This document shows, one piece after another, positions 4,282 through 61,380 of a stretch of DNA of 64,000 nucleotides. Both the position numbers and the translations under genes were made by a program. The DNA is taken from NCBI GenBank assembly GCA_030019215.1, contig JASEEZ010000003.1:12109-76108 (forward strand). The letters are read 5' to 3'. Origin of the DNA: Actinomycetota bacterium. Its GTDB lineage: Bacteria > Actinomycetota > Aquicultoria > Subteraquimicrobiales > UBA9087. Position 1 is the first letter of the stretch. Each line of letters begins with the position of its first letter. The notes under the pieces are model-generated. The model searched no databases, was not told the DNA's origin, and saw only the letters and a program-made list of their open reading frames with translations.

Positions 4282-5797
4282 GGTGAGGAGATTATCCCCG
4301 ATCGATCAAGTTTATCTGGTCATCCGCTTCTCGAGCATCCTTGTGATCTGGCTTGCTTTCGGTCTCGGTCGCTTCCCACCTGAGATCCCACGGCTGTTTG
4401 CCTGGCTTCTACCATCCATTTTTACCCTCTACAGTGCCATTTTTGCTCTCTCACTGGGGTTGCTTCCAAGGCATCACCGACTCTTATATCTGATCGTCTT
4501 GCCGTTTGACCTCTTCTGTCTGACCTTTGCGGTCTACTTCACGGGTGGGGCCGATAGCCCATTCTACGTGGGCTACTTCATCTTGGCCAGCATCTATGCC
4601 CTTTGCTTCAAGGCTAGCTTGGGTATAGCTGTCGGATTTTCCTCAGCTGCCCTTTTTTCCCTGGGTAGCCTGAGGGAGCTTCCCACATCGGGCTGGGCCG
4701 ATCTGGGCGTCAAGACCAGTCTCCTCGTGGGAATGACCATCCTTCTGGCCATGATAACCGGAACCGAAAGGATGGAGAGGGAGGAGATAAGGAGGCTTAA
4801 CCTTATTCTTTCGGAGAAGAACGAGGAGCTTTCCAGGAAGGTGACAGAGCTCAACGCCATCTCCGGAATGGCCATGGCCATTCACTCCACACTGGACGTC
4901 GACGCCCTCACCAAGTTGACACTGAATCTGCTCAAGAAGGTGCTGAATTTGGGTGCTTGCTCCTTAATGATGATTGAGAAGAAAACCGGACAGATCCTTT
5001 TCTCGGCTACGGAGAGCTTGTCGAAGGAGGAGGCCAAAAAGGCTCTCTCCGAGGAGATAGCCAAGGGCATTTTATCGGGCAGGGAACAAAAGGTTGCCGA
5101 CTATGAACAGCTGAGCTTCTTCAGATGCATTCCTCTTCTTCACAGAGAGAACATAGTAGCTGCTCTTTGCACCGACTCCAAGGCCCTCGATGACATTTCC
5201 TCCGACGATGTGATGATACTCTCGGCCATCGCCAGCGAGTTGGCGGTGGCGATAGAAAATGTCCGCCTCTACGAGTTGACCAAAAAGCTTTCCGTAACCG
5301 ATGAGCTCACCGGTCTTTACAACTACCGACATCTCCAGCAGAGGCTAGAAAGCGAGCTCGAACGAGCGGAGCGCTACGTTCATCCTCTCTCCCTGATCAT
5401 GATAGATGTGGATGATTTTAAGTTGTATAACGATACTTACGGACATGTTCAGGGTGACTCTGTCCTGGCGAAAGTGGCTCGGATAATAAAAGGTAGCTGT
5501 CGGGAGTTGGATGTGGTGGCCAGATATGGAGGAGAGGAGTTTGCTATAATTTTGCCAGAAACTGACAGTTCCGGTGCTTTTGTGGTGGCGGAGAAGGTCA
5601 GGGAGGCGGTAGCCGAGCATAAGTTTTTGGGCCGGGATGGCCAAAGGGATGCTCGACTGAGTGTGAGTCTTGGAATAGCCAGTTACCCGGTTCACGCGGC
5701 TGATCTTGAGGGTTTGGTTAAAGAGGCGGATAATGCTCTTTACAGAGCCAAGACTGGGGGCCGAAACAGAATCTGCAAACCGGGCGAGGAGGGATGA
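4274..5797 (+). CDS. membrane-anchored GAF-GGDEF diguanylate cyclase
   Basis: 507 aa. About 5 N-terminal TM helices, a GAF domain, and a GGDEF domain with 'RYGGEEFAIILPETD' and the RxxD-like region. GTG start at 4274 overlaps the DUF4446 stop. Confidence 0.75.
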   Translation: MFRVRRLSPIDQVYLVIRFSSILVIWLAFGLGRFPPEIPRLFAWLLPSIFTLYSAIFALSLGLLPRHHRLLYLIVLPFDLFCLTFAVYFTGGADSPFYVGYFILASIYALCFKASLGIAVGFSSAALFSLGSLRELPTSGWADLGVKTSLLVGMTILLAMITGTERMEREEIRRLNLILSEKNEELSRKVTELNAISGMAMAIHSTLDVDALTKLTLNLLKKVLNLGACSLMMIEKKTGQILFSATESLSKEEAKKALSEEIAKGILSGREQKVADYEQLSFFRCIPLLHRENIVAALCTDSKALDDISSDDVMILSAIASELAVAIENVRLYELTKKLSVTDELTGLYNYRHLQQRLESELERAERYVHPLSLIMIDVDDFKLYNDTYGHVQGDSVLAKVARIIKGSCRELDVVARYGGEEFAIILPETDSSGAFVVAEKVREAVAEHKFLGRDGQRDARLSVSLGIASYPVHAADLEGLVKEADNALYRAKTGGRNRICKPGEEG

Positions 5798-5804
5798 TGT
5801 ACAA

Positions 5805-6641
5805 GTGGCGATAAGGATAGGATACCTGGGTCCCCAAGGGACCTTCACCGAAGAAGCCTTGCTTTCGGCTATCCCTCTCGAGGGCAAGGAACTCGTCTCC
5901 TACTCCACCGAACAAGAGGTCATCTACGCGGTGGAAAGAAAAGAGGCGGATAAGGGCATCGTCCCCATCGAAAATTCCATCGAGGGTTCGGTGAATGTGA
6001 CCCTGGATATGCTCACCTTCGAAGCGAGTCTTCTAATCGAGAGGGAAATAATCACTCCCATCAGGCATTACTTGATCTCTTCCCCGGGCATGAGCCTCAA
6101 GGATGTCTCTCTCTTGATCTCTCATCCGCAGGCCACCGCCCAGTGCCGGGGTTATCTGGCCGGGAATTTGCCCAACATTCCCGTGGTGGCCGCGAATAGT
6201 ACGGCCGAGGCAGTTAAGAGGGCGGCCGAGGAAGGGAGAACGGTGGCGGCCATCGGCACCAGGTTGGCGGCGGAACTCAATGGCTTGGTGATTCTGGACT
6301 CGGATATCCAGGACTTCAAGGACAATAAAACTAGATTCGTCATCGTGGGCAGGGAAGCGGCGCCCCGCACCGGCAATGATAAGACTTCCATGGTCTGCTT
6401 CATCTATGAGGATAGACCCGGCAGCCTTCTCCAGATATTGCAGGAGTTCGCTTACCGGTATATCAATCTGACAAAGATACAATCACGTCCTACCAAGAAA
6501 GCCTTGGGGGATTACTGCTTCTGGATCGATATGGAGGGACATCTGGAGGACGAGGCCATTGCCTCAGCCATCAAGTGTCTGCGCTGCAAGCTCCGCGATG
6601 TGAAGGTGCTCGGTTCCTATCCCAAAGCGGATAAGACCTAG
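5805..6641 (+). CDS. pheA: prephenate dehydratase with C-terminal ACT domain
   Basis: 'VAIRIGYLGPQGTFTEEA', '...TKIQSRPTKK...', ACT domain. I chose GTG 5805 as start (classic 'M-IAYLGP' N-terminus). The track ORF begins at 5706 inside the upstream gene. TAG stop. Confidence 0.75.
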   Translation: MAIRIGYLGPQGTFTEEALLSAIPLEGKELVSYSTEQEVIYAVERKEADKGIVPIENSIEGSVNVTLDMLTFEASLLIEREIITPIRHYLISSPGMSLKDVSLLISHPQATAQCRGYLAGNLPNIPVVAANSTAEAVKRAAEEGRTVAAIGTRLAAELNGLVILDSDIQDFKDNKTRFVIVGREAAPRTGNDKTSMVCFIYEDRPGSLLQILQEFAYRYINLTKIQSRPTKKALGDYCFWIDMEGHLEDEAIASAIKCLRCKLRDVKVLGSYPKADKT

Positions 6642-6756
6642 TGCCGTTACAACTTTAAGATAGTACCGTTACAACCTAATTTGCCTGATTGGTCTTACTC
6701 CATTAGAAAAGTGACCTTCTAACAAGGTAAAGTGAAAATAGTTGTAACGGCACTAG
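6638..6756. repeat. MITE-like element with inverted termini CTAGTGCCGTTACAAC / GTTGTAACGGCACTAG and an internal direct copy (TAGTACCGTTACAAC); copy 1 of 2
   Basis: Terminal inverted repeats read directly at 6638-6653 and 6741-6756. AT-rich interior. A second copy with the same termini is at 22975-23152. Confidence 0.6.
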
Positions 6757-9167: not shown

Positions 9168-9256
9168 GGTGGGATGGCAGAGTGGTTGAATGCACCGGTC
9201 TTGAAAACCGGCAAGGTCGTAAGGCCTTCAGGGGTTCGAATCCTCTTCCCACCGCC
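9168..9256 (+). tRNA. tRNA-Ser (anticodon TGA), type II with long variable arm, CCA encoded
   Basis: Acceptor GGTGGGA/TCCCACC. Anticodon loop CTTGAAA. T-loop GGTTCGAATCC. Discriminator G followed by CCA. Confidence 0.85.
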
Positions 9257-9466
9257 AATATGTGCGGGGCAAGTCCCTCACCCTCCGCCATTTTTGCGAA
9301 GCAAAAATGTCCTGAGTGAATCGGAGTTTGGCAAAGATGAGCCGAAGGGCAACAGTCCTAAGCAGCCTCGGGGGACAAAACGGGAAATGGACAGTGAGGA
9401 GTCGGCAGTAAATAAATCTTAAATCTTTTTACTCCCGACTCTCCACTAATAAACTCCCAACTTATT

Positions 9467-9559
9467 GGAGAGGTGCCCGAGTGGTTGAAGGGAGCCGCCT
9501 GCTAAGCGGTTAAGCCGGGAAACTGGCTTCGAGGGTTCGAATCCCTCCCTCTCCGCCAC
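9467..9559 (+). tRNA. tRNA-Ser (anticodon GCT), type II, CCA encoded
   Basis: Acceptor GGAGAGG/CCTCTCC. Anticodon loop CTGCTAA. T-arm GAGGGTTCGAATCCCTC. Discriminator G followed by CCA. Confidence 0.85.
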
Positions 9560-9656
9560 ATTTTAGTTGGTAGTTAGGAGTCGGGAGTCGGTAGTAAATA
9601 AAATCTTTATAAATCTTTTCACTCCAGACTACCCACTAACAAACTCCCGACTAAAT

Positions 9657-9732
9657 GCGCTCGTGGCTCAACGGATAGAGCGACGGACTACGAATCCGTA
9701 GGTTGGGGGTTCGATTCCCTCCGAGCGCACCA
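9657..9732 (+). tRNA. tRNA-Arg (anticodon ACG), CCA encoded; the substrate of TadA
   Basis: GCGCTCG acceptor. Anticodon loop CTACGAA. T-arm GGGGGTTCGATTCCCTC. Then CGAGCGC, discriminator A and CCA. Confidence 0.85.
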
Positions 9733-9910
9733 TTCTTGCGTGAAGTTCTCTTTGAATGGTGTAACTGAGGCACTAGGGGGTATGGGGGATTTATCCCCCA
9801 TGATTTAGGGGGTGACAGCCCCGCCGCAGGCGGGGCGTCCTCAGGGGGACTTGTCCCCCTAGGAACGTCGCGGAGGCGACGAGGGGGTTCGATTCCCTCC
9901 GAGCGCACCA
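9733..9910 (+). other. GC-rich multi-hairpin spacer followed by a 27-nt duplicate of the tRNA-Arg 3' end (9884-9910)
   Basis: Three G5/C5 hairpins (GGGGGATTTATCCCCC, GCCCCGCCGCAGGCGGGGC, GGGGGACTTGTCCCCC) nested in a CTAGGGGG/CCCCCTAG outer stem. 'GGTTCGATTCCCTCCGAGCGCACCA' at 9884-9910 is identical to the 3' end of the tRNA-Arg at 9657-9732. Confidence 0.55.
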
Positions 9911-9929
9911 GAAATGCGGTTAATAGTGG

Positions 9930-10121
9930 GTGGTTTGTAGCAAAATTCTGTATGATGTTGAGCCTAGGCTACGGGAGAAACGTTATGGGGAAGGTCTGCC
10001 AAGCGTGTATTATGATTCAGAATCTTATAAAGTTAAAAAAGAATGCTGGAAGAAAACAGGATTTATCAGACGTAGAAGTGTTAGAGAAAGTGGAAAAGGT
10101 TCTTGCAAAGGAAGAGGATGA
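9930..10121 (+). CDS. small hypothetical ORF in AT-rich insert (a 59-aa alternative frame with a CQAC pair also exists)
   Basis: 63-aa ORF in a roughly 35% GC island between the duplicated tRNA-Arg end and tadA. No recognisable family. The coding frame is uncertain. Confidence 0.2.
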   Translation: MVCSKILYDVEPRLREKRYGEGLPSVYYDSESYKVKKECWKKTGFIRRRSVRESGKGSCKGRG

Positions 10122-10303
10122 AACGGACTAAAGTTTTGAAGGGATACCATCATAGCTATTCTGAGGAATCTATTAAACAATATATGGCTTTGCCTACCGA
10201 AATGAAACTCAAATGGTTGGAGGAGGTAAATAGATTTTCTTACTGCGCTTTACCCCCAAAAAACAAAAAAATTAGGGAACTTCTTAGAGCTGGTAAAATT
10301 TAG
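10103..10303 (+). CDS. small hypothetical protein (66 aa, basic N-terminus, helical C-terminus) in AT-rich insert
   Basis: 'MQRKRMKRTKVLKGYHHSYSEESIKQYMALPTEMKLKWLEEVNRF...'. Low-GC codon usage unlike its neighbours. Possibly a remnant cargo gene of an integrated element. Confidence 0.25.
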   Translation: MQRKRMKRTKVLKGYHHSYSEESIKQYMALPTEMKLKWLEEVNRFSYCALPPKNKKIRELLRAGKI

Positions 10304-10315
10304 CTAGGTAAAGAT

Positions 10316-10762
10316 ATGACAGATGAAGAATATATAAAAATAGCTATTGGGGAGGCGAGAAAGGCCGCTTCCCAAGATGAGGTGCCTGTTGGCGCCGTTA
10401 TTGTTTTTGGTGATGAAATTATCGCTCGTGCCCACAATGAGCGCGAGGCCAGGCGCGATCCCACCGCCCACGCTGAGATTTTGGCCATTCGGGAGGCGGC
10501 TCGGCATCTTGGGAGCTGGCGATTGGCGAGTTGCACCATCTATGTGACTAAGGAACCCTGCCCCATGTGCGCCGGGGCGATCTTTCAAGCTCGCATCGAC
10601 CGGTTAGTTTATGGGGCTCCGGACGAGAAAGCGGGGGCGGTGGGCACTCTATACAACATAGTCAACGACGAAAGATTGAACCACCAGGTTGAAGTGGTGG
10701 CTGGAGTTTGCGAAAAAGTTTGTCGAGAGCTCCTGCAAGATTTTTTCAAAAAAAGGCGATAA
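10316..10762 (+). CDS. tadA: tRNA-specific adenosine deaminase (A34 of tRNA-Arg(ACG))
   Basis: 148 aa. CDA-fold zinc motifs 'HAEILAIREAA' and 'PCPMCAGAI'. Confidence 0.9.
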   Translation: MTDEEYIKIAIGEARKAASQDEVPVGAVIVFGDEIIARAHNEREARRDPTAHAEILAIREAARHLGSWRLASCTIYVTKEPCPMCAGAIFQARIDRLVYGAPDEKAGAVGTLYNIVNDERLNHQVEVVAGVCEKVCRELLQDFFKKRR

Positions 10763-10771
10763 AATAGTTTT

Positions 10772-10846
10772 GGAGGGGTCGCATAGTCCGGTCTAGTGCG
10801 GCGGTCTCGAACCCCGCAAAATTTGGCGGTGGCACACGCGGAGCCC
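10772..10846 (+). other. decayed tRNA-Ser-like 5' fragment (pseudo-tRNA) upstream of tRNA-Ser(CGA)
   Basis: 'GGAGGGGTCGCATAGTCCGGTCTAGTGCGGCGGTCTCGAACCCCGC' closely parallels the 5' half of the tRNA-Ser(GGA) at 11218 (acceptor, D-arm, CGA-like anticodon arm). It has no T-arm or acceptor 3' strand. Confidence 0.45.
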
Positions 10847-10882
10847 TGAAGCGATCGGGGAATCTATTTCATAAGATAAGAT

Positions 10883-10973
10883 GGTGGGGTGCCAGAGCTT
10901 GGTTTATTGGGCTGGTCTCGAAAACCAGTGTCCGCTTAGGCGGACCGTGAGTTCGAATCTCACCCCCACCGCC
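10883..10973 (+). tRNA. tRNA-Ser (anticodon CGA), type II, CCA encoded
   Basis: Acceptor GGTGGGG/CCCCACC. Anticodon loop CTCGAAA. T-arm GTGAGTTCGAATCTCAC. Discriminator G followed by CCA. Confidence 0.85.
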
Positions 10974-11217
10974 AATATGTGCGGGGCGAATCCCACCCCC
11001 TCCGCTACCCCGCCTGTGGCAGGGTGCCCTGAGCTTAGCTGAAGGGCGAGATAGCAATTAGTTAGTAGTGGGGGAGTTGGGGGCCGGAGTTAATGAAAAA
11101 TGGAGAACGAAAAATGAAAAATTACAACGTAAAATTAAGAATGTTTTTAAATCCTTAAATCATTCTTCATTTTTAGTTCTTAATTCTGACTGTCAACTAA
11201 CAGACTCTTGATTAACT

Positions 11218-11308
11218 GGAGGAGTCGCATAGTTGGCCTAGTGCGCGCGACTGGAAATCGCGTTGGGTACCAAAAGTACCCTCGAGGGTTCGAATCCCTC
11301 CTCCTCCG
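11218..11308 (+). tRNA. tRNA-Ser (anticodon GGA), type II, CCA not encoded
   Basis: Acceptor GGAGGAG/CTCCTCC. Anticodon loop CTGGAAA. Long variable arm. T-arm GAGGGTTCGAATCCCTC. Discriminator G followed by CTA. Confidence 0.8.
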
Positions 11309-11351
11309 CTAGTTGGAAAATCTTTCTTTTTGATTCATAAACAGATATTTT

Positions 11352-14425: not shown

Positions 14426-14697
14426 TTGACCGTGCTAGGCGGGGAGTCAGCGGTGCCCTGTACCCGCAATCCGCTACAGCGGGGCCGAATTCCTGCCTGA
14501 GGCACTGGCTGTGAGGACCGTTCTTGGGCAAGGGATGCTGAAGGCCGGGTCCTGTGCGACGGAGGCTTGCGAACCCCGTCAGGTCCGGAAGGAAGCAGCG
14601 GTAAGCAAATACCTCCGGGTGCCGCAGACAAACCTGGCTGGAGTCACCTACCCGAGTCACGCTCGTGGTTTTGATGTCGAGGGCAGGTGCACGGTCA
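14426..14697 (+). ncRNA. ffs: signal recognition particle RNA, long (Bacillus-type) form with Alu domain
   Basis: The 5' 'GACCGTGCTAGGCGGGGAGTCAGCGGTGCCCTGTACCCGCAATCCGC' is near-identical to B. subtilis scRNA. The universally conserved domain IV 'GTCAGGTCCGGAAGGAAGCAGC' is at about 14576-14597. The 3' 'GGTGCACGGTC' pairs with the 5' GACCGTGC. It is followed by a T-rich tract. Confidence 0.85.
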
Positions 14698-19883: not shown

Positions 19884-21632
19884 GTGTCTTACATCTCTCT
19901 GTATAGAAAATATCGTCCTCAGACTTTTGGGGAAGTCGTTGGCCAGACCCACATCACTCAGACCCTGGCCAACGCGGTCAAGCAGAATCGCTTCTCCCAT
20001 GCCTATCTCTTTGCCGGACCCCGAGGAACGGGAAAGACAACCACCGCCAGAATCTTTGCCAAGGCACTCAACTGTGCCAAGGGGCCGACTCCCACCCCTT
20101 GCAATGAATGTGGAATCTGTTTGCAGATAATCGGGGGAAACTCCATCGACGTTCTGGAGATAGATGCCGCCTCCAACCGGGGCATAGATGAGATCAGGGA
20201 TCTAAGGGAAAAGATCCGCTTCACCCCGACGGAGGCTCGATACAAGATGTATATAATAGACGAAGTTCACATGCTTACCCCCGAGGCCTTTAACGCTCTC
20301 TTGAAGACGCTGGAGGAACCGCCTGAATGCGTAGTCTTCGTCCTGGCGACGACGGAACCTCATAAGGTTCTCCCCACGATCCTCTCTCGCTGTCAACGCT
20401 TTGATTTCAGGCGTATCCCGATTTCGGATGCGGTGGGATACCTCCACCAGATTGCGAAGGCCGAGGGAATAGTCATCGACGAGACTGTTCTTCCCTTGAT
20501 TGCCAGGCAGGCTCAAGGCTCCTTGAGAGACGCCATTGGGGTTCTGGAGCAGTTGTCCTCCTTTGCCGGTGAGAAGATCGGCCTGGATGAGGTTATCTCC
20601 CTTCTGGGCATGGTCGAAATTGAACTCCTGTTCGAGATCGTGGATATAGTGAGCAGGAGGGATACGGCCGGCGCCCTTTTCTTCGTGGAGAGGTTGATGG
20701 GGAGCGCGAGAGACATCCGGCAGTTCACGAAGGAACTCATAGACCACCTCAGAAATCTCTTCGTCATCCGGAGCACCGATGAACCGGCGGGGATGATAGA
20801 TGCTACCCCTGATGCCCTGGCCAGGATGGAGGCCCAGGCCTGCTCTTTCCAGCCATCCGAGATAATGAGATTCATGGATATTCTGACGGAAACTCACGGC
20901 GAGATGCGCTGGAGTCCAGATGCCAAGCTTCTCCTGGAGATGGCCCTGGTCAAGATGACAAAGCCGGAGGTGGATGCGTCTCTTGATGGGTTGCTGTATA
21001 GGATCGATGAGCTAGAGAGAAAGATCGAGGGACGAGGGACGAGGGACGAAAGTCAGAAGATAAAGAAGTTAGAGGCGAAAGAAATGGGGGAGGTGCACGA
21101 GGTTGAAGAGGTAAAAGAGGGAGAAGGCGCGAAGAAGGGGAAGGTGGAAGCGGTAAAGGGTACAGCGGGTGGAAAAAGAGATGAAGCGACACCCAGCCAG
21201 CAACCAGTTATCGGAAAGCAGGCTACAGGTCAAAAAATAGATATTGCTAGGGTGAGAAGAGCCTGGCCGGTGATTTTGAATCAGGTTAAAGAGAAGAAGA
21301 TATCCACTTACGCCCTCCTTCTGGAGTGCCAACCCTCCTCGGTAACGGAGAAGACCATCGTCCTGGAGTTCAGCGAGAGGGCCTCCTTTCATTTGCAGGA
21401 GATGGAAAAATCTCGCAATTTGAAGGTGCTCTTGCAATCTTTGAAAAAGGTATTGGGCATGGATGTGGATGTCGAGTGCACTTTGAGAGAGGATGAGGGA
21501 CCGAAGTCTCGGGAGACATCCCTCCGGGAAGAAAAGTTAACCGAGGAGCCGGTCGAGCCCCATATCGTCAAGCTGGTTCAGGATAGTTTCGGAGCAGAGA
21601 TAATCGAGGAAGTTGAATTCACAGAAGACTGA
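19884..21632 (+). CDS. dnaX: DNA polymerase III subunit gamma/tau
   Basis: GTG start. 'YRKYRPQTFGEVVGQTHI', Walker A 'GPRGTGKTT', and clamp-loader sensor motifs. Low-complexity acidic linker. Confidence 0.9.
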   Translation: MSYISLYRKYRPQTFGEVVGQTHITQTLANAVKQNRFSHAYLFAGPRGTGKTTTARIFAKALNCAKGPTPTPCNECGICLQIIGGNSIDVLEIDAASNRGIDEIRDLREKIRFTPTEARYKMYIIDEVHMLTPEAFNALLKTLEEPPECVVFVLATTEPHKVLPTILSRCQRFDFRRIPISDAVGYLHQIAKAEGIVIDETVLPLIARQAQGSLRDAIGVLEQLSSFAGEKIGLDEVISLLGMVEIELLFEIVDIVSRRDTAGALFFVERLMGSARDIRQFTKELIDHLRNLFVIRSTDEPAGMIDATPDALARMEAQACSFQPSEIMRFMDILTETHGEMRWSPDAKLLLEMALVKMTKPEVDASLDGLLYRIDELERKIEGRGTRDESQKIKKLEAKEMGEVHEVEEVKEGEGAKKGKVEAVKGTAGGKRDEATPSQQPVIGKQATGQKIDIARVRRAWPVILNQVKEKKISTYALLLECQPSSVTEKTIVLEFSERASFHLQEMEKSRNLKVLLQSLKKVLGMDVDVECTLREDEGPKSRETSLREEKLTEEPVEPHIVKLVQDSFGAEIIEEVEFTED

Positions 21633-21954
21633 AGACCAGCGGCCAGAGGTCAGGGGTCAAGAGTCAGGGGGCACGGGTCAAGGGATAAAGAACCAGGGAC
21701 GAAGGGTGAGAGAAGCAAAGAACGAAGGGTGAGAGAAATATAGGAACAGGGGGATTAACTTCCTGGTTTCCTAGCTTCCCGGGTTTCCTTGTTTTCATCC
21801 GACAGCCGACATCCATCATCCGACGAGGAATTTTCTCTAAGCTCTGAGCTCTTGGCTCTAAGCTAGCTGACAACTGTCATCTGTGAACTGTCAGCTATTT
21901 CGAATAACTAATAACGAATGGGCATGAAAATTTATGAGTAAAGGAGCGATCTCG

Positions 21955-22974: not shown

Positions 22975-23152
22975 CCAGTACCGTTACAACTAATTTTTCC
23001 TGAGAAATCTAAGCTTTTGTTCAATCTGTTTATTAAAGAAGCGTTCGCTGATATTAAGCCCGTTAGAATTTTTAATGTAAATGCAGTTACTAACATCAAA
23101 CAAAGTAAATTTAATTCTAACAGGCTGAAGCGACAAGTTGTAACGGTACCAG
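22975..23152. repeat. MITE-like element, copy 2 (termini CCAGTACCGTTACAAC / GTTGTAACGGTACCAG, AT-rich interior)
   Basis: Inverted termini at 22975-22990 and 23137-23152 share the CCGTTACAAC core with the element at 6638-6756. Confidence 0.6.
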
Positions 23153-30004: not shown

Positions 30005-30135
30005 GCTAAGGGACGAAGGGCGAAGGACGAGGGACGAAGATTTTTTCAGCCGTCATCCGACATCCGACGGCACAAGGCACAAGGCACCTGACATCCGTCA
30101 TCCGACAAGAACTAGAAATGAGTGGTGAAGAAAAA

Positions 30136-32144: not shown

Positions 32145-32186
32145 TTTCCTTTCCCCGTCGGAACCTAGACTCGGTGTTAAGTTAGG

Positions 32187-32436
32187 CTCTTCTCCAAAAA
32201 TGGTGGGCAGAAATTGCCAAGGCGAGATAAAGTGCGGAGAGAACTTTAGGATTCAAGGATCCAAGTGGTCAAGGGGTCTAGTGAAAGTCTTGCAAAATAA
32301 ATCACCTGAATCCTAGGACCCCAGAATCCTTGAATCCTTCTGTAAGAAATTTTTGCCTCCTCGAATCCTTTCATGAACCACTCTTTTGGATGAGAACGAG
32401 ATTAATAATTTTATCCACTAAAAATGGGGAAGAACC
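32187..32436. repeat. ~230 bp repeat element, copy 1 (termini CTCTTCTCCAAAAATGGTGGG ... TTATCCACTAAAAATGGGGAAGAACC; interior GAATCC word repeats)
   Basis: Aligns end-to-end with 58488-58691, with shared blocks 'GAGAACTTTAGGATTCA', 'CAAGGGGTC.AGTGAAA' and 'ACTCTTTTG'. It abuts the start of the helicase gene. Confidence 0.65.
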
Positions 32437-32457
32437 TTGAGTTATAATTTAAGAGGA

Positions 32458-34731
32458 ATGGACCCATTGGCGTTTGTGGACTCGATCAAGAGCAATCCCA
32501 CTTACAAGGGGCAGATCGTCCACGTGGAGAGAATTCCTCCCAGAGAAGCAATCTTCGGAAAGCCGGAGCACCCTCTGCCTTCCCGAATCAAACAGCGCTT
32601 GGCTGATCTGGGGATCACTGAATTATATGGTCACCAGGCTAGGGCCATCGACCTCGTCCGTCAAGGGAAGAACGTGATCGTAGTCACTGGCACGGCGAGC
32701 GGCAAGAGTCTTTGCTACAATGTTCCCGTCTTGGAGGCCATTTTGGAGAACGCCAAGAACACCGCCTTCTATCTCTTTCCCACCAAGGCTTTGGCCCAGG
32801 ATCAACTCAGGGTTCTTGGGGAGTTTGATTTGGCCCCTCTGGTTTCGGTTACCTACGACGGAGATACCCCCGGCGATGAAAGAGTTTGGATTAGGCGCAA
32901 TGCCAATGTGGTCCTCACCAATCCAGACATGCTCCACTATGGGATCTTGCCCAATCACAGGATGTGGGGGAATTTTCTTCTCAATCTCAGGTACGTCGTT
33001 GTGGACGAGGCACATGTCTTTCGCGGTGTCTTCGGTTCCAACGTGGCCAACCTGATCAGGCGTCTGAGGAGGCTCTGCAAGCACTACCGCTCTAACCCTC
33101 AGTTCACCCTGTCCTCGGCGACCGTGGCCAATTCCGGAGAGCATGCCCGAAGGCTGACCGGACTTGAAGTCGAGGTCGTTGACGAGGATTGTTCCCCCCA
33201 CGGAGAAAAGTTCTTCCTATTCTGGAATCCACCCTATCTCGATGAGGCCAAGGAGAGGCGTCGGAGTTCCAACTCGGAGGCCGCTCACCTTTTCGCCTCG
33301 CTCGTTAAGAGTGGCGTCAGGAACATCACCTTCAGCAAATCTCGCCAGACGGCGGAGCTCGTCTTCAAATACGCTCGCGAAGAGCTTAAGGGCAGTCCGG
33401 AACTGTTGGATAGGATGAGGTCGTACCGAGCTGGATATCTGGCCCCCGAGCGCCGGGAGATCGAGCGAGGGCTCTTCGGTGGAGAGCTTTTGGGGGTGAG
33501 CTCCACCAATGCACTGGAGCTTGGGGTGGATATCGGCACTTTGGATGCCTGTGTGATCAATGGATATCCGGGAACCATCGCTTCCACCTGGCAACAGGCT
33601 GGGAGAGCGGGCCGCAAGCGGGGAAGTTCTCTGGCCATCCTGTTGGCCCAGGATGACCCCCTGGATCAGTATTACATGAAGCACCCCGAGGCCTTCTACG
33701 GCAAGAGCTGTGAGGAGGCCATCGTGGATTTCGAGAATCCCTCCATCTTCTTCCAGCACCTTACATGTGCCGCTTGTGAACTTCCCTTAACCAAAGAGGA
33801 TGAGGAGTTCTTCGGTCGTGCCTATCCTGAAATGGTCAAATCTCTCCTCTCTCGGGGGGAGCTCATGGAGAGAAAGTCTAGGTGGTTCTGGGTGGGGCGG
33901 AGGGTTCCTGCCCAGGAGACCAACATCCGTTCCGCCTCTCGGGATGTCTACTCCATAGTCGAGCTGGAAACGGGGGCCCTTCTCGGAACCATAGACTCCA
34001 CCACCACCTTCATTTACGTCCACCCGGGGGCCATCTATCTCCATCAGGGCGATTCCTACCTGGTGGTCGATCTGGACTTGGCTGCTAAGGTTGCCTTTGT
34101 GGAGAGAGCCTGCGGCGATTACTACACTCAGCCCAGGGAAGAGACGAGTCTGGTTGTTCTGGGGGAAGATTTGCGGAGAGAAATTGGCCGGACGAGGGTC
34201 TGCTTCGGGCGAGTCGATGTCACCAGCCATGTCATCGCCTTCCAGCGAAAGCGAATCTTCACGGGTGAGGTTTTGGGGACGGAGAAGCTGGATTTGCCGC
34301 CCCAGCGCTTTAAGACGGAGGCCTTCTGGTTTACCATCCCGGATGATGTCCTCTCCCAGCTTGCCCCGAGTGAGCGGGAGCTGGCCGGGGGCATTCACGC
34401 TGTAGAACACGCCGCCATCGCTCTGCTCCCCATGTACGCGATGTGCGATAGGTGGGACATTGGCGGGGTCTCCACCCCATTCCATCCACACACGGGCTTT
34501 CCATCCATCTTCATCTACGATGGTTTTGAGGGCGGAGTAGGAATCGCTGCCCGCGGATATGATCTCTGTGAGAATCTTTTAAAGGAGACCTTGAGCCACA
34601 TCGGGGACTGCGAATGCAAGGTGGGTTGCCCTTCCTGCATCCAGTCACCCAAGTGTGGAAACTGGAATGAACCCCTGGATAAAAAGGTGGCCATCGAGAT
34701 TTTGGAGAAAATATTAGGGAGGGGTAGGTAG
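32458..34731 (+). CDS. ATP-dependent helicase of the YprA/MrfA family (DEAD/DEAH helicase plus C-terminal DUF1998 zinc-ribbon domain)
   Basis: Walker A 'GTASGKS'. 'LFPTKALAQDQ'. 'VVDEAH'. C-terminal 'CECKVGCPSCIQSPKCGNWNEPLD' (DUF1998 4-Cys). ATG 32458 aligns with the Bacillus YprA N-terminus; TTG 32437 is the alternative. Confidence 0.8.
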   Translation: MDPLAFVDSIKSNPTYKGQIVHVERIPPREAIFGKPEHPLPSRIKQRLADLGITELYGHQARAIDLVRQGKNVIVVTGTASGKSLCYNVPVLEAILENAKNTAFYLFPTKALAQDQLRVLGEFDLAPLVSVTYDGDTPGDERVWIRRNANVVLTNPDMLHYGILPNHRMWGNFLLNLRYVVVDEAHVFRGVFGSNVANLIRRLRRLCKHYRSNPQFTLSSATVANSGEHARRLTGLEVEVVDEDCSPHGEKFFLFWNPPYLDEAKERRRSSNSEAAHLFASLVKSGVRNITFSKSRQTAELVFKYAREELKGSPELLDRMRSYRAGYLAPERREIERGLFGGELLGVSSTNALELGVDIGTLDACVINGYPGTIASTWQQAGRAGRKRGSSLAILLAQDDPLDQYYMKHPEAFYGKSCEEAIVDFENPSIFFQHLTCAACELPLTKEDEEFFGRAYPEMVKSLLSRGELMERKSRWFWVGRRVPAQETNIRSASRDVYSIVELETGALLGTIDSTTTFIYVHPGAIYLHQGDSYLVVDLDLAAKVAFVERACGDYYTQPREETSLVVLGEDLRREIGRTRVCFGRVDVTSHVIAFQRKRIFTGEVLGTEKLDLPPQRFKTEAFWFTIPDDVLSQLAPSERELAGGIHAVEHAAIALLPMYAMCDRWDIGGVSTPFHPHTGFPSIFIYDGFEGGVGIAARGYDLCENLLKETLSHIGDCECKVGCPSCIQSPKCGNWNEPLDKKVAIEILEKILGRGR

Positions 34732-37879: not shown

Positions 37880-37996
37880 TCCACTGGCCAGGAACCAGAG
37901 TTCAGGGGCCAGCCTTCAGCTACCAGTCACCAGGTACGAGGCACAAGGAACCAGGAACCAGGAACCAGGAACATCTGTCATCCGACAAGATCGTTT

Positions 37997-39016: not shown

Positions 39017-39077
39017 TCTCACCTTTTGCCACTCGTTCCGAGTTCCGTTATTAGGAATTAGTTATTCGAAATTCGTC

Positions 39078-39215
39078 TGTCAGCTTAGAGCTCGGAGTTT
39101 AGAGCTTAGAGAAAAATCTTTTGTCTCTACGCTCTCTGCTCCCTGCTCTCTGCTTTCCTCGTTATTCGTCCTTTCGCCCTTCGTCCCTGACCCCTGGCCT
39201 CTGTCAACCGTCAAC
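39078..39215. repeat. ~135 bp repeat element, copy A (CAGCTTAGAGCTCGGAG...CTCTACGCTCTCTGCTCCCTGCTCTCTGCTTTCCTCGTTATTCGTCC...CCTGGCCTCTGTCA)
   Basis: About 95% identical to the reverse complement of 54062-54200. The termini are shared with a diverged third copy at 61141-61380. Confidence 0.7.
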
Positions 39216-54046: not shown

Positions 54047-54061
54047 CAGATGCTGGGTGTC

Positions 54062-54200
54062 CAGAGGCCAGGGTTCAGGGACGAGGGACGAAGGACGAAT
54101 AACGAGGAAAGCAGAGAGCAGGGAGCAGAGAGCGTAGAGGCAAAAGATTTTTCTCTAAGCTCTAAGCTCCGAGCTCTAAGCTCCAAGGAACCAGGAACAA
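54062..54200. repeat. ~135 bp repeat element, copy B (inverted relative to copy A at 39078-39215)
   Basis: The reverse complement aligns at about 95% identity with 39078-39215. Confidence 0.7.
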
Positions 54201-54258
54201 GAAACCAATCATCCGACCTCCGTCATCCGACATCCGGCAGAGTGAGGAGGAAGAAAGA

Positions 54259-55667: not shown

Positions 55668-56576
55668 TTGGTGTTCAAGATCGTTAAAAAAGAAGAACTC
55701 ACCGCCGATGTTTACCTGATCGAGTTGGAAGCCCCCGACATTGCCAGGAAAGCACAGCCTGGTCAGTTCATCGTGCTTCGCATCGGCGAGCGAGGCGAGC
55801 GCATCCCTCTGACCATCGCCGATTTTGACCGGGCAAAAGGAACGATTTCCATCCTCTTTCTGGTGGTTGGTAAGTCCACCAGGTGGCTTTCCGATCTCCG
55901 GGCCGGGGATCACCTTGTTGATGTCAGCGGTCCACTGGGCAAACCGAGTGAGATAGAAAGGGTGGGGACCGTCCTTTGTGCTGGTGGTGGAGTGGGGATA
56001 GGTGCCATTCATCCAATTGCCCGAGCCTTTCGCGAGGCGGGCAACCGTGTCATCGTGGTCATGGGTTTCCGCAGCAAAGACCTCATCGTCTTCGAGGATG
56101 AGATGAGGGCAGTCTGCGACGAGTTTCATATCTGCACCGACGATGGTTCCCGCGGTTTTAAGGGTTTCGTAGCCCAGTTGGTCGACAAAATTCTTAAAGA
56201 AGACGAGGTCGATCTAGTCTATGCCATTGGCCCCACGATGATGATGCGCACCGTCTGTGATACCACTCGGCCTCACAGGATAAAAACTGTGGTTAGCCTG
56301 AACCCAGTTATGGTGGATGGTACGGGGATGTGTGGTTCTTGCCGGGTCTCGGTGGGTGGAAAGACTAAGTTCTGCTGTGTGGACGGCCCCGAGTTCGATG
56401 GCCAGCAGGTGGACTTTGACCTGCTCATGGCCAGACAAAAAATTTATCTAGAAGAAGAGAAACTATCGATGGAGCGATATGAAGCAAAAGGGGAAGGACG
56501 AAGGGCGAAGTCCGAAAGGCGAGTGAAGGACGAAAAGCGAAAAGCGGAGGGCGAGTGTCGAAAAGTGAAGAGTTGA
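55668..56576 (+). CDS. nfnA: NfnA/SudB-type ferredoxin-NADP+ reductase small subunit (FAD/NAD-binding, PyrK-like, [2Fe-2S]); its C-terminal ~30 aa are encoded by a GGACGAAGG-type repeat
   Basis: 'GQFIVLRIGERGERIPLTIA', 'LCAGGGVGIGAIHPIA', 'CGSCRV...C'. The tail 'AKGEGRRAKSERRVKDEKRKAEGECRKVKS' is translated from repeat DNA. Confidence 0.75.
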   Translation: MVFKIVKKEELTADVYLIELEAPDIARKAQPGQFIVLRIGERGERIPLTIADFDRAKGTISILFLVVGKSTRWLSDLRAGDHLVDVSGPLGKPSEIERVGTVLCAGGGVGIGAIHPIARAFREAGNRVIVVMGFRSKDLIVFEDEMRAVCDEFHICTDDGSRGFKGFVAQLVDKILKEDEVDLVYAIGPTMMMRTVCDTTRPHRIKTVVSLNPVMVDGTGMCGSCRVSVGGKTKFCCVDGPEFDGQQVDFDLLMARQKIYLEEEKLSMERYEAKGEGRRAKSERRVKDEKRKAEGECRKVKS

Positions 56577-58407: not shown

Positions 58408-58487
58408 GCCCGCTGCTTGCTCAAGAAATCCGGGATATTTGTCGATAAATATTAAGACGTCTGGGACCATCTGGGTTAACAAATTTG

Positions 58488-58691
58488 ACTCTTCTCCAAA
58501 AATAGTGGGTGGAACAACTAGGTGCGATGAAGCCTAAAGAGAACTTTAGGATTCAGGGATTCTAGGGGCCAAGGGGTCAAGTGAAAAACACTTGAATCCT
58601 CGAATCCTTGAACCCTCGAACCCTTCTACGTGCAACTCTTTTGAGAAAAGAACAAGATTAAAAGTTTATCCACTAAAAATGGAGAAGAACC
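58488..58691. repeat. ~230 bp repeat element, copy 2 (same termini as 32187-32436)
   Basis: End-to-end alignment with copy 1. Sits directly upstream of the histidine kinase gene. Confidence 0.65.
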
Positions 58692-58720
58692 ATAAATTTG
58701 GATTATTATCGGGGTGAGAA

Positions 58721-60480
58721 ATGGATTTTGAGCCAGGAATGAGGCTGGGAATAGTCAGGAATGCGGCCAGAGTGCGGTGGCTGGTCATTGCCTACGTTCT
58801 TCTCTTTGTCTATTTTAACCCCACCCCACTGATAAAACTGCCCTTGGTTCTGGCGCTGATGGCCATGGCGGCCGCGTATAATCTCCTGGTTCATTTTGGC
58901 ATCTTTCCCTTTAAACTGACCGAAGGCGAAGGTCCAGGAGCGGTCTATGCCACGGTTTTAGGGGACATTGCGCTGGTCACTATGCTTATCGTGCTAACGG
59001 GCGGGGCCCATAGCCAGTTTTACTTTCTATATTTCCTCATTCTCCTTCTCGTGGCCGTCGCTTTCACCCTCCCCGTTGCCCTCGCTTTTACCCTTCTCAT
59101 CTCCACGATCTACTTTACCATTTACTCTTTGAGGCATCCTTTTCCCATGGAGTGGCTCAACGTCTCCTTGGGCCTGATCCTGGTTTGGTTTGCCATGACC
59201 CTGGCTTGTTACTATCTAGTTGGTGAGATCAGAAGGCAATCGGAGAGCTGCCGAATTGCCTACGGCGATCTCCAAAGTCACCATGAAGAGGTGGAGCGCC
59301 TTTCCCAAAAACTGGGAAGGGCTCTTACCGATTTGTCCACCATCTATAAACTCAGCAGGCAGATGGTGGCCAAGACCAACCCGCGAGAACTTTTGGATAT
59401 GGCGGTGCGGATGTGTAGGGAGGTTCTCGGTGCGGAATCGGTCTCCATAATGCTTCTGGGTAAAGACAGAGGAGAGCTCACCATTGAAGCAGCTCAAGGT
59501 CTAAGTGAGGAGTTGGTTAAGAATACTCGGGTGAAGGTCGGTGAGCGTGTCGCCGGCTGGGTGGTCAAAGAGGGCAAACCCTTACTGCTCGATCAAGATC
59601 TCAGCGGAATGGAGTTTAAGAAATTCCACAAGAGAGCGTCGGTCAAGTCCTCTTTGTGTGTCCCTTTGGTTGTGGGGGAGAGCCGATCGGGGCATTGAAC
59701 GTCACGAACAAAAAGTCGGGAGAGGAATTTACTCGAGATGAGCTGGAGCTACTCACCTCCTTCGCCGAGCACGTGGCAATAGTTTTGCAGAGAAATGTTC
59801 TCCTTTCAGAATTGGAGGAGAACCGGAGCATTCAGGAGCGCTTGACGAAAAAGATAATCGATGCGCAGGAGGAGGAGAGAAAGAGAATCGCTCTGGCTAT
59901 CCACGATAGTGTGGTTCAACTGATCGCCAGTACTCTTTTAAGACTCGACGCCTGCGAAGCACACCTTAGTGGCAATGATCGAGCAAGGGCGGAGCTTTAT
60001 AAGGCAAAAGAGGTGCTCGATGACAGTTTGGGTGAGATGAGAGGGCTCATCTCGGATCTTCGTCCAGTTCTCCTCGACGATCTTGGTCTCATTCCCGCTC
60101 TGCGCAAGACTGCGGAGGAGTGGGGAAAGGAAATGGGTATAACGACGGAGATCACGCTCGAGGGGCCTCACCCCGATTTGCCAAAGTCGGCGGAGACGGC
60201 CCTGTTCCGGATTGTCCAGGAGGCCTTGGCCAATGTGAAAAACCACGCCAAGGCCACCCGGATGGATTTGAAGATAACATCTGCAGATGGGCGACTGGAA
60301 ATCAAAGTGAAAGACAATGGTGTAGGTTTCGATTTTGAAAAAATCATCGCCAAATCCCTTACCAGCAAGAACATCGGTTTTGAGTCCATGCAGGAGAGAG
60401 CGAAGATGTGCGAAGGCAGCCTGGAGATAAATAGCGCCCCTGGGAAGGGAACGGAGGTCAAAGTTGTCGTCCCGCTTTGA
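58721..60480 (+). pseudogene. membrane GAF sensor histidine kinase (HisKA_3/NarL-type) split by a frameshift in a G5 run at 59674-59678 (inside the GAF domain)
   Basis: Frame 2 gives '...SSLCVPLVVGESRSGH*'. Frame 1 continues 'GGEPIGALNVTNKKSGEEF...' and then 'IHDSVVQLIAS' (HisKA_3) and HATPase_c. Adding one G restores 'CVPLVVGGEPIGALNV'. Confidence 0.7.
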
Positions 60481-61140: not shown

Positions 61141-61380
61141 AAATCAGCTTAGAGCTCAGAGCACGGAGCTAGTGAGTTGATAGTCGTCAGTCGGGAGTCG
61201 TCAGTTTTTAGCCCCCAGCTTCCAGTCGCCAGTTACCAGTCCTCTTTGGTTTTGCTGAAAGCTGGCAGCTGGAGGCTGGAGGCTGTTATTTTTACTCCCC
61301 ACTCCCGACTTTCTATCCACGCTGGTGGCTGGAAGCTGGTAGCTGGCCCCTGGCCTCTGTCATTTGTTATCCCTCATTTG
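61141..61380. repeat. diverged third member of the CAGCTTAGAGCTC...CCTGGCCTCTGTCA element family with a different word-repeat interior (AGTCGTCAGTCGGGAGTCG; GCTGGCAGCTGGAGGCTGG)
   Basis: Shares both termini with the copies at 39078 and 54062. The interior is replaced by other oligo-word tandem repeats. Confidence 0.5.

Follow-up and report, generated by a model that had tools for sequence, protein, structure and literature searches.

The 64-kb stretch of DNA analysed here (the window) carries two copies of a short repeat, each lying just upstream of a gene, and this raises the question of whether the repeats serve the genes that they precede or simply landed there. The earlier note on this DNA left both answers side by side: the repeats could supply promoters or 5' leaders to a helicase and a histidine-kinase gene, or they could be MITE-like insertions with imperfect inverted ends. 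The second proposal is strongly supported by ISL3-type ends, 8-bp duplications and an empty site, and we consider it very probable that the two repeats are non-coding MITEs moved by an ISL3-family transposase, that is, ordinary mobile DNA. The first found no support, as no promoter is shared by the copies, no Rfam family matches, the folding of the two strands shows no asymmetry and orthologous loci occur without the element.

Extent and interior of the two repeats

The stretches 32150-32460 and 58460-58720 were aligned on the + strand, where copies A and B, located 26 kb apart, align end to end with 78% mean column identity and indels of 14 nt and 30 nt. This confirms the description of two related repeats. 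The terminal words that had been quoted for them each occur exactly twice in the 64 kb, against an expectation of 0.04-0.05, and the internal block GAGAACTTTAGGATTCA is present only in copies A and B when the 64-kb window is searched. The GAATCC-type words correspond to period-8 tandem repeats detected by TRF (32324-32339 and 58594-58624). With blastn within the window, the shared interior was recovered at E 3e-13 and the shared 3' part at E 2e-10, the interior common to both copies consisting of 49 nt at 88% and 79 nt at 82%. Allowing up to 4 mismatches, a search of the window and of the related loci L044-L052 gave no further copies or solo ends.

The boundaries of the repeats required a small correction. 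The repeats themselves are real, but their true 5' ends lie 2 nt (copy A) and 1 nt (copy B) further 5' than first placed, because GG/GA completes the inverted repeat (Table 1). Both copies are of MITE size, roughly <500 bp, and contain no transposase gene. In their interior, arrays complementary to the GAATCC arrays and also of period 8 (32262-32283 and 58549-58567) form with them a long central hairpin, which in copy A corresponds to an inverted repeat, I5, with arms at 32248-32284 and 32302-32338.

Table 1. Positions in the window of the two putative MITEs, their parts and their flanking duplications.
Feature	Position	Strand	Sequence	Remarks
Putative MITE, copy A	32185..32436	+		252 bp, without transposase; boundaries by inverted-repeat scan and alignment to copy B
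Left target-site duplication, copy A	32177..32184	+	TTAAGTTA	7/8 match to TTGAGTTA
Left inverted repeat, copy A	32185..32206	+	GGCTCTTCTCCAAAAATGGTGG	A-tract type
Central hairpin, copy A	32248..32338	+	AGGATTCA-like vs TGAATCCT-like arms	Period-8 words; TRF and minimum-free-energy fold
Right inverted repeat, copy A	32415..32436	-	GGTTCTTCCCCATTTTTAGTGG	T-tract type; read on the - strand
Right target-site duplication, copy A	32437..32444	+	TTGAGTTA	Overlapped by the helicase ORF at its mechanical TTG start
Putative MITE, copy B	58487..58691	+		205 bp, without transposase; inverted-repeat scan and alignment
Left target-site duplication, copy B	58479..58486	+	ACAAATTT	7/8 match to ATAAATTT
Left inverted repeat, copy B	58487..58508	+	GACTCTTCTCCAAAAATAGTGG	A-tract type
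Central hairpin, copy B	58555..58624	+	GGATTCTAG and GAACCCTC arrays	Period-8; TRF and fold
Right inverted repeat, copy B	58670..58691	-	GGTTCTTCTCCATTTTTAGTGG	T-tract type; read on the - strand
Right target-site duplication, copy B	58692..58699	+	ATAAATTT	

Many other intergenic spacers of the window are mosaics of different tandem heptamers (such as GGGACGA, AGCAGAG, CTCTAAG, GGAACCA and CATCCGA), found at 39068-39203 (-), 54062-54236 (+), 21014-21059, 21644-21919, 30009-30107, 37896-37972, 56480-56557 and 61146-61359. A heptamer unit of ~100-130 nt is repeated at 39082-39180 and 54084-54182 with 95% identity, and the stretch 54060-54185 forms a hairpin with complementary heptamer-array arms (z -3.3). 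The interior of the putative MITEs has the same architecture as these heptamer hairpins, but with 8-nt words, which suggests that the MITE captured, or was built around, a tandem-array hairpin.

Ends shared with ISL3-family elements

The 22-bp ends of the two copies (left, GGCTCTTCTCCAAAAATGGTGG in A and GACTCTTCTCCAAAAATAGTGG in B; right, inverted, GGTTCTTCYCCATTTTTAGTGG) are complementary except for the central hexamer, with 8 outer and 5 inner pairs kept. Read inward, the hexamer changes from AAAAAT on the left to ATTTTT on the right, which corresponds to AAAAAT on the + strand at both ends. The orientation of this central tract (CC-AAAAAT-RG vs CC-ATTTTT-AG) is the only difference between the two types of inverted repeat. 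All the ends have an ISL3-type start, namely GGCTCTTC at the left of copy A, GACTCTTC at the left of copy B and GGTTCTTC at the right ends.

The left end was searched with its 19-nt 5' word, using one genome per species, which gave 28 hits. Roughly half of these were discarded as chance occurrences inside coding regions (e.g. L004, L008, L016, L003 and L017). The word was found where assemblies break at a repeat and at the termini of bounded elements, and its hosts were Candidatus Hakubella thermalkaliphila, Candidatus Subteraquimicrobium carltonvillense UBA2594, UBA9088/9089, two other Actinomycetota MAGs and several bins of one cave metagenome. The search of metagenomes with the right word retrieved 15 loci, nearly all of which are termini of a single kind of element. 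Two inverted occurrences of the word lie 1337 bp apart in L038, and in L034 the element ends are 1232 bp apart; the ORFs between these T-type ends match the Pfam domain DDE_Tnp_ISL3 (E 8e-27 and 8e-39) and also HTH_Tnp_ISL3.

Intact transposases were located by a protein search with a composite of the L034/L038-type ORFs. The protein P0248 is a transposase of 394 aa with the Pfam domains DDE_Tnp_ISL3 (E 1.6e-67), HTH_Tnp_ISL3 and Zn_ribbon_ISL3. Its element is 1337 bp long, both ends being perfect copies of GGTTCTTCTCCAAAAATAGTGGGTAA (A-tract, T at position 3), and occupies at least five insertion sites, two of which (L053 and L055) show perfect 8/8 duplications, AAAATTAT and TAATTTTT. No ISL3 transposase is encoded in the 64-kb window, as searched by tblastn with an ISL3 transposase.

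Across the recovered ISL3 elements, the ends match those of the window copies at 20-22 of 22 positions. Compared with GGTTCTTCTCCAAAAATAGTGG, the sequence at either end of the intact 1337-bp ISL3 element of L053-L060, the left end of copy A differs at two of 22 positions (3 and 18); its right end is identical to the right end of the 1337-bp element in L038 and is one base off the ends in L029-L043, which the right end of copy B matches exactly. Judged by this similarity, the ends of the window repeats are the inverted repeats of ISL3-family insertion sequences. Between the window copies and the full-length elements, the similarity is confined to the terminal 26-36 nt.

The combination of end types separates these elements. 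Those of 1.2-1.34 kb for which both ends were recovered are A/A (L053-L060) or T/T (L034, L038), and A/A ends are also found in L021, a 586-bp deletion derivative that keeps a Zn_ribbon_ISL3 ORF. All other non-autonomous elements with both ends intact, that is, window copies A and B, L013, L019, L020 and L024, are A/T hybrids. That a single transposase moved elements with such hybrid ends is putative, the recovered full-length elements having the same type at both ends.

How two such copies came to lie in one window could be explained without transposition of the short form itself, if each were the in-place decay product of a full-length ISL3 copy after independent internal deletions. Indeed, relatives hold deletion derivatives with transposase fragments, such as the 586-bp L021 and L019, in which the left subterminal region runs straight into the final ~25 codons of the transposase. 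Nevertheless, independent deletions would not yield the same unrelated interior, and here two unlinked copies, each between target duplications of its own, have a homologous, non-transposase interior, with no similarity to transposase-coding or subterminal IS DNA beyond 36 nt. We therefore regard such decay as highly improbable. A segmental duplication including the flanks is argued against by the different flanks of copies A and B. Rather, since the two copies share a non-IS interior and the similarity to insertion sequences stops 26-36 nt from the ends, they would represent one small family that transposed as such.

Two of the hybrid-ended relatives, both without transposase, are cassettes with passenger ORFs. 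L020 (5511-6138, 628 bp) carries a GIY-YIG ORF (E 2e-16) and L013 (3526-4055, 530 bp) a DUF559 ORF (E 2.4e-36), each between A/T ends of ISL3 type and with a 7/8 duplication. In L020, a hairpin made of a minimal left end and a degenerate right end directly follows the left end.

Target-site duplications and orthologous loci

Both copies are flanked by AT-rich direct repeats of 8 bp, the duplication length of ISL3 elements. In the window, 8-mers match at 7/8 or better at that spacing in 0.06% of cases overall and in 0.4% of AT-rich ones. Duplications of 7/8 are also present at three of the five other complete elements, and the examined flanks of L021 and L038 showed no target duplication. As the duplications of the window copies are 7/8 and not 8/8, their insertions are not recent.

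Orthologous loci were retrieved via the proteins flanking each copy: a cation-efflux protein and an MrfA-like DEAD-box helicase for copy A, and a gltD-like oxidoreductase and a GAF/HisKA_3 histidine kinase for copy B. The gltD-like protein of the window is 100% identical to P0122, a protein recorded for an Actinomycetota MAG. At locus B, a sister species (L052, GCA_022729455.1; gltD-like protein 85% identical) lacks the MITE: one ATAAGTTT takes the place of the ACAAATTT, 205 bp of repeat and ATAAATTT present in the window. The spacer between the gltD-like and histidine-kinase genes measures 106 nt in L052 vs 313 nt in the window, and the flanks align on both sides. Locus B of L052 is thus a clean empty site. 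In a 91%-identical relative (L051), the contig ends before the insertion site and is of no use as a second empty site.

At locus A, the near-identical contigs L044 and L050 contain the identical element at the same site. In the sister species (L045-L048), whose cation-efflux protein is 87% identical, that position is occupied by an unrelated insert of ~210 bp, and in Ca. Subteraquimicrobium (L049; 69% identical) the spacer is just 107 nt long. The possibility that this insert is a decayed orthologue of the MITE was ruled out, as it neither aligns nor matches the inverted repeats. It lies within 2290-2559 of L045 (the same in L046-L048), a stretch orthologous to window positions 32145-32457. 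Direct repeats of 16 nt (TATAGTCTGAGTTATA and TATAGTCTAGGTTATA) flank the insert, its inverted ends are weak (CTGGACATAAT vs TTAGACATAAAT), and it contains tandem words of the GGATTTAG type. Small repeats seem to have landed in the spacer of locus A more than once.

The comparison with orthologous loci that the earlier note had proposed as a check on a regulatory role thus went against such a role: locus B occurs without the element, and locus A has a similar spacing occupied by unrelated sequence. From the empty site at B and the unrelated insert at A, the element appears to be dispensable for the neighbouring genes.

Starts of the neighbouring genes

The placement of the copies relative to the two genes could be refined. 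That copy A ends 1 nt before the helicase ORF holds for the mechanical ORF beginning with TTG at 32437, but the likely start, judging by gene calls on the near-identical and sister contigs, is 21-30 nt downstream, either an ATG (32458) or another TTG (32467). The TTG at 32437 falls within the right target duplication and is unlikely to be where the helicase really begins. Copy B does lie just before the histidine-kinase gene, ending 29 nt before its ATG at 58721 (30 nt in the earlier count).

A TATAAT at 32443-32448 straddles the right target duplication of copy A (32437-32444) and the adjacent flank, and is conserved in the sister species. The histidine-kinase gene (58721-60480) is split into overlapping ORFs, 58721-59698 and 59656-60480, with the break near 59634. 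Its orthologue in L052 is a single protein of 585 aa, and the window is one base short in a G-run (GTGGG-GGAGAG). The split would reflect either a frameshift that has made the kinase gene a pseudogene or an error in the assembly.

RNA and promoter readings

The folding of the copies invites a different reading, in which they are a structured non-coding RNA or a cis-regulatory leader of the riboswitch or sRNA kind, with the ends as a closing helix containing a conserved AAAAAU/AAAAAU internal loop. The predicted folds of copies A and B have the closing helix in common, along with a long central hairpin; their + strands are far more stable than shuffled sequences (z -3.9 for copy A and -5.9 for copy B), and the two base differences of copy A in the closing helix are G-U compatible on the + strand. 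This closing helix with its internal loop is, nevertheless, simply the two inverted repeats. Folding of the reverse strands is just as stable as that of the + strands (-76.8 vs -78.1 kcal/mol for copy A and -70.9 vs -69.8 kcal/mol for copy B), and this equal folding of both strands implies that there is no RNA-specific signal, as palindromy at the DNA level predicts. Folded as single-stranded DNA, copy A is not exceptional (z -1.3).

Comparisons with databases and relatives point in the same direction. No relevant Rfam family was found, either for the whole window at the gathering threshold or for copy A at E up to 10, where the best match reached 17 bits vs a cut-off of 83. Across genomes only the termini are conserved, which are the inverted repeats bound by the transposase, and the interiors elsewhere are unrelated or even bear ORFs. 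Target duplications and an empty site are, moreover, unexpected for an RNA gene. Double changes occur in just 2 of 50 pairs, a covariation check between two sequences only that is uninformative. A structured RNA is therefore extremely improbable here, and this reading can be considered as already largely refuted.

The MITE origin that we favour is compatible with a later co-option, by which the elements would provide a promoter, a hairpin in the 5'-UTR or between cistrons, or a signal governing the processing or stability of the helicase and kinase mRNAs. Both copies are on the coding strand, 21-30 nt upstream of the start codons, their predicted transcripts fold stably, with the z values given above, and other prokaryotic MITEs such as Correia elements carry promoters (PMC10969869). 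Nevertheless, the scan with promoter consensus sequences detected no promoter-like site common to copies A and B, the sole outward hybrid promoter candidate being TGGAGA-18-TATTAT in copy B, with no counterpart in copy A. No terminator-like site was found in the copies by a terminator scan, and the same genes are expressed in the sister species without the element.

The orientation of the hybrid-ended elements is a further point in favour of co-option. All six (window copies A and B, L013, L019, L020 and L024) have the same orientation as the gene next to their right end, lying typically 26-30 nt and up to ~200 nt upstream of its start; in four of them the right end is 21-30 nt from this start, and two of the six carry small nuclease ORFs on the strand of that gene. 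Against this, the sample is of n=6, from five Actinomycetota or unclassified genomes (~0.03 two-sided), and L001, with a degenerate right end, has the opposite orientation. The orientation bias is thus a lead, not a finding. It is quite doubtful that the hybrid-ended subfamily constitutes a polar MITE whose orientation matters; if it were polar, insertion or retention would be orientation-specific, for example because a transcript hairpin or the right end affects the downstream gene. Altogether, we consider co-option for the helicase and kinase mRNAs unlikely, and the elements may have an incidental effect on the expression of the downstream genes.

Other features of the window and its relatives

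A third small repeat family is present at 6641-6753 and 22978-23149, defined by the inverted terminal word GTRCCGTTACAAC(T/C)TAATTT, with 5 matches vs 0.01 expected. At 6641-6753, an inverted pair ~90 bp apart is accompanied by a direct copy 22 bp upstream, and at 22978-23149 the inverted pair is ~170 bp apart. The contig of L051 breaks into a word of this family at 5500-5513, 13 nt upstream of the insertion site of copy B.

The window also contains, at 9168-11309 and 14430-14694, a cluster of four tRNA-Ser genes and one tRNA-Arg gene and a large bacterial SRP RNA (209 bits). Stretches of ~55 nt, repeated at 9234-9288 and 10951-11005 with 84% identity, begin inside the 3' end of tRNA-Ser and run downstream in two of these genes. 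Finally, an intein (Intein_splicing, with a faint LAGLIDADG_3) is encoded in Ca. Subteraquimicrobium (L049, 499-2400) within the gene for a TPP-enzyme subunit that lies upstream of the syntenic block, the subunit being 633 aa long in L049 vs 306 aa in L044, the contig near-identical to the window.

Proposed mechanism and implications

The window copies combine features of MITEs, namely terminal inverted repeats, a target duplication of parental length and a presence/absence polymorphism with a single-target empty site, with those of ISL3 derivatives, namely ISL3-type ends, an 8-bp duplication and ends shared with elements encoding DDE_Tnp_ISL3. In the mechanism that we propose, two ISL3-type ends of ~22-26 bp surround a non-coding interior that is mostly a hairpin of 8-nt words. 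An ISL3 DDE transposase would be supplied in trans by a full-length element, either located elsewhere in the genome or since lost; it would recognise both ends and insert the element into AT-rich intergenic targets of 8 bp, duplicating the target. Catalysis in trans would presumably be due to the cognate ISL3 transposase of this lineage, and the placement just upstream of genes would reflect a preference for AT-rich targets and not a function.

For annotation, this means that stretches of ~200-250 bp of this kind should be described as ISL3-derived MITEs with their target duplications, not as regulatory RNAs or promoters. These MITEs record past ISL3 activity in a poorly known, uncultured lineage of Actinomycetota, and their presence or absence provides markers that separate close species. 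The spacers just upstream of genes would be recurrent landing sites for small mobile repeats. None of this bears on any long-standing open question.

Comparison with known systems

Mobile insertion cassettes are bounded by inverted repeats and contain a passenger gene and no transposase, as in the IS231-derived MIC231 of Bacillus cereus. L020 and L013, with their hybrid ISL3 ends and passenger ORFs, resemble such cassettes, from which the window copies differ in having no ORF.

Among autonomous ISL3 elements, ISArsp7 of Arthrobacter (1451 bp) has inverted repeats beginning with GGCTCTTCGCGG and an 8-bp direct repeat (PMC6305408). Like this element and those of L053-L060 and L038, the window copies have ends that start with GG(C/T)TCTTC and an AT-rich target duplication of 8 bp. 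Unlike them (1.3-1.45 kb, with DDE_Tnp_ISL3), the window copies are 205-252 bp long, have no ORF and share only the terminal 26-36 nt.

Correia elements, in which sigma-70 promoters and an IHF site have been demonstrated, duplicate TA (PMC10969869). In common with these and other promoter-bearing MITEs, the window copies are short, bounded by inverted repeats, mostly located just upstream of genes and able to form transcript hairpins; they differ in having no demonstrable promoter and a duplication of 8 bp.

The closest description is that of a MITE of Microcystis aeruginosa PCC 7806, of 187 nt, with GGCTCTTCG ends and 8-nt direct repeats, which was attributed to ISL3 (PMC11448079). The window copies are equally small and non-coding, with imperfect, GGCTCTTC-starting ISL3-type ends, 8-nt direct repeats and a stem-loop. 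In contrast, their host is an uncultured member of the Actinomycetota and not a cyanobacterium, the similarity does not extend past the first ~8 nt of the ends, and the window elements have hybrid A/T ends and an interior of 8-nt tandem words. The window elements are, therefore, a fresh example of the already known category of MITEs related to ISL3.
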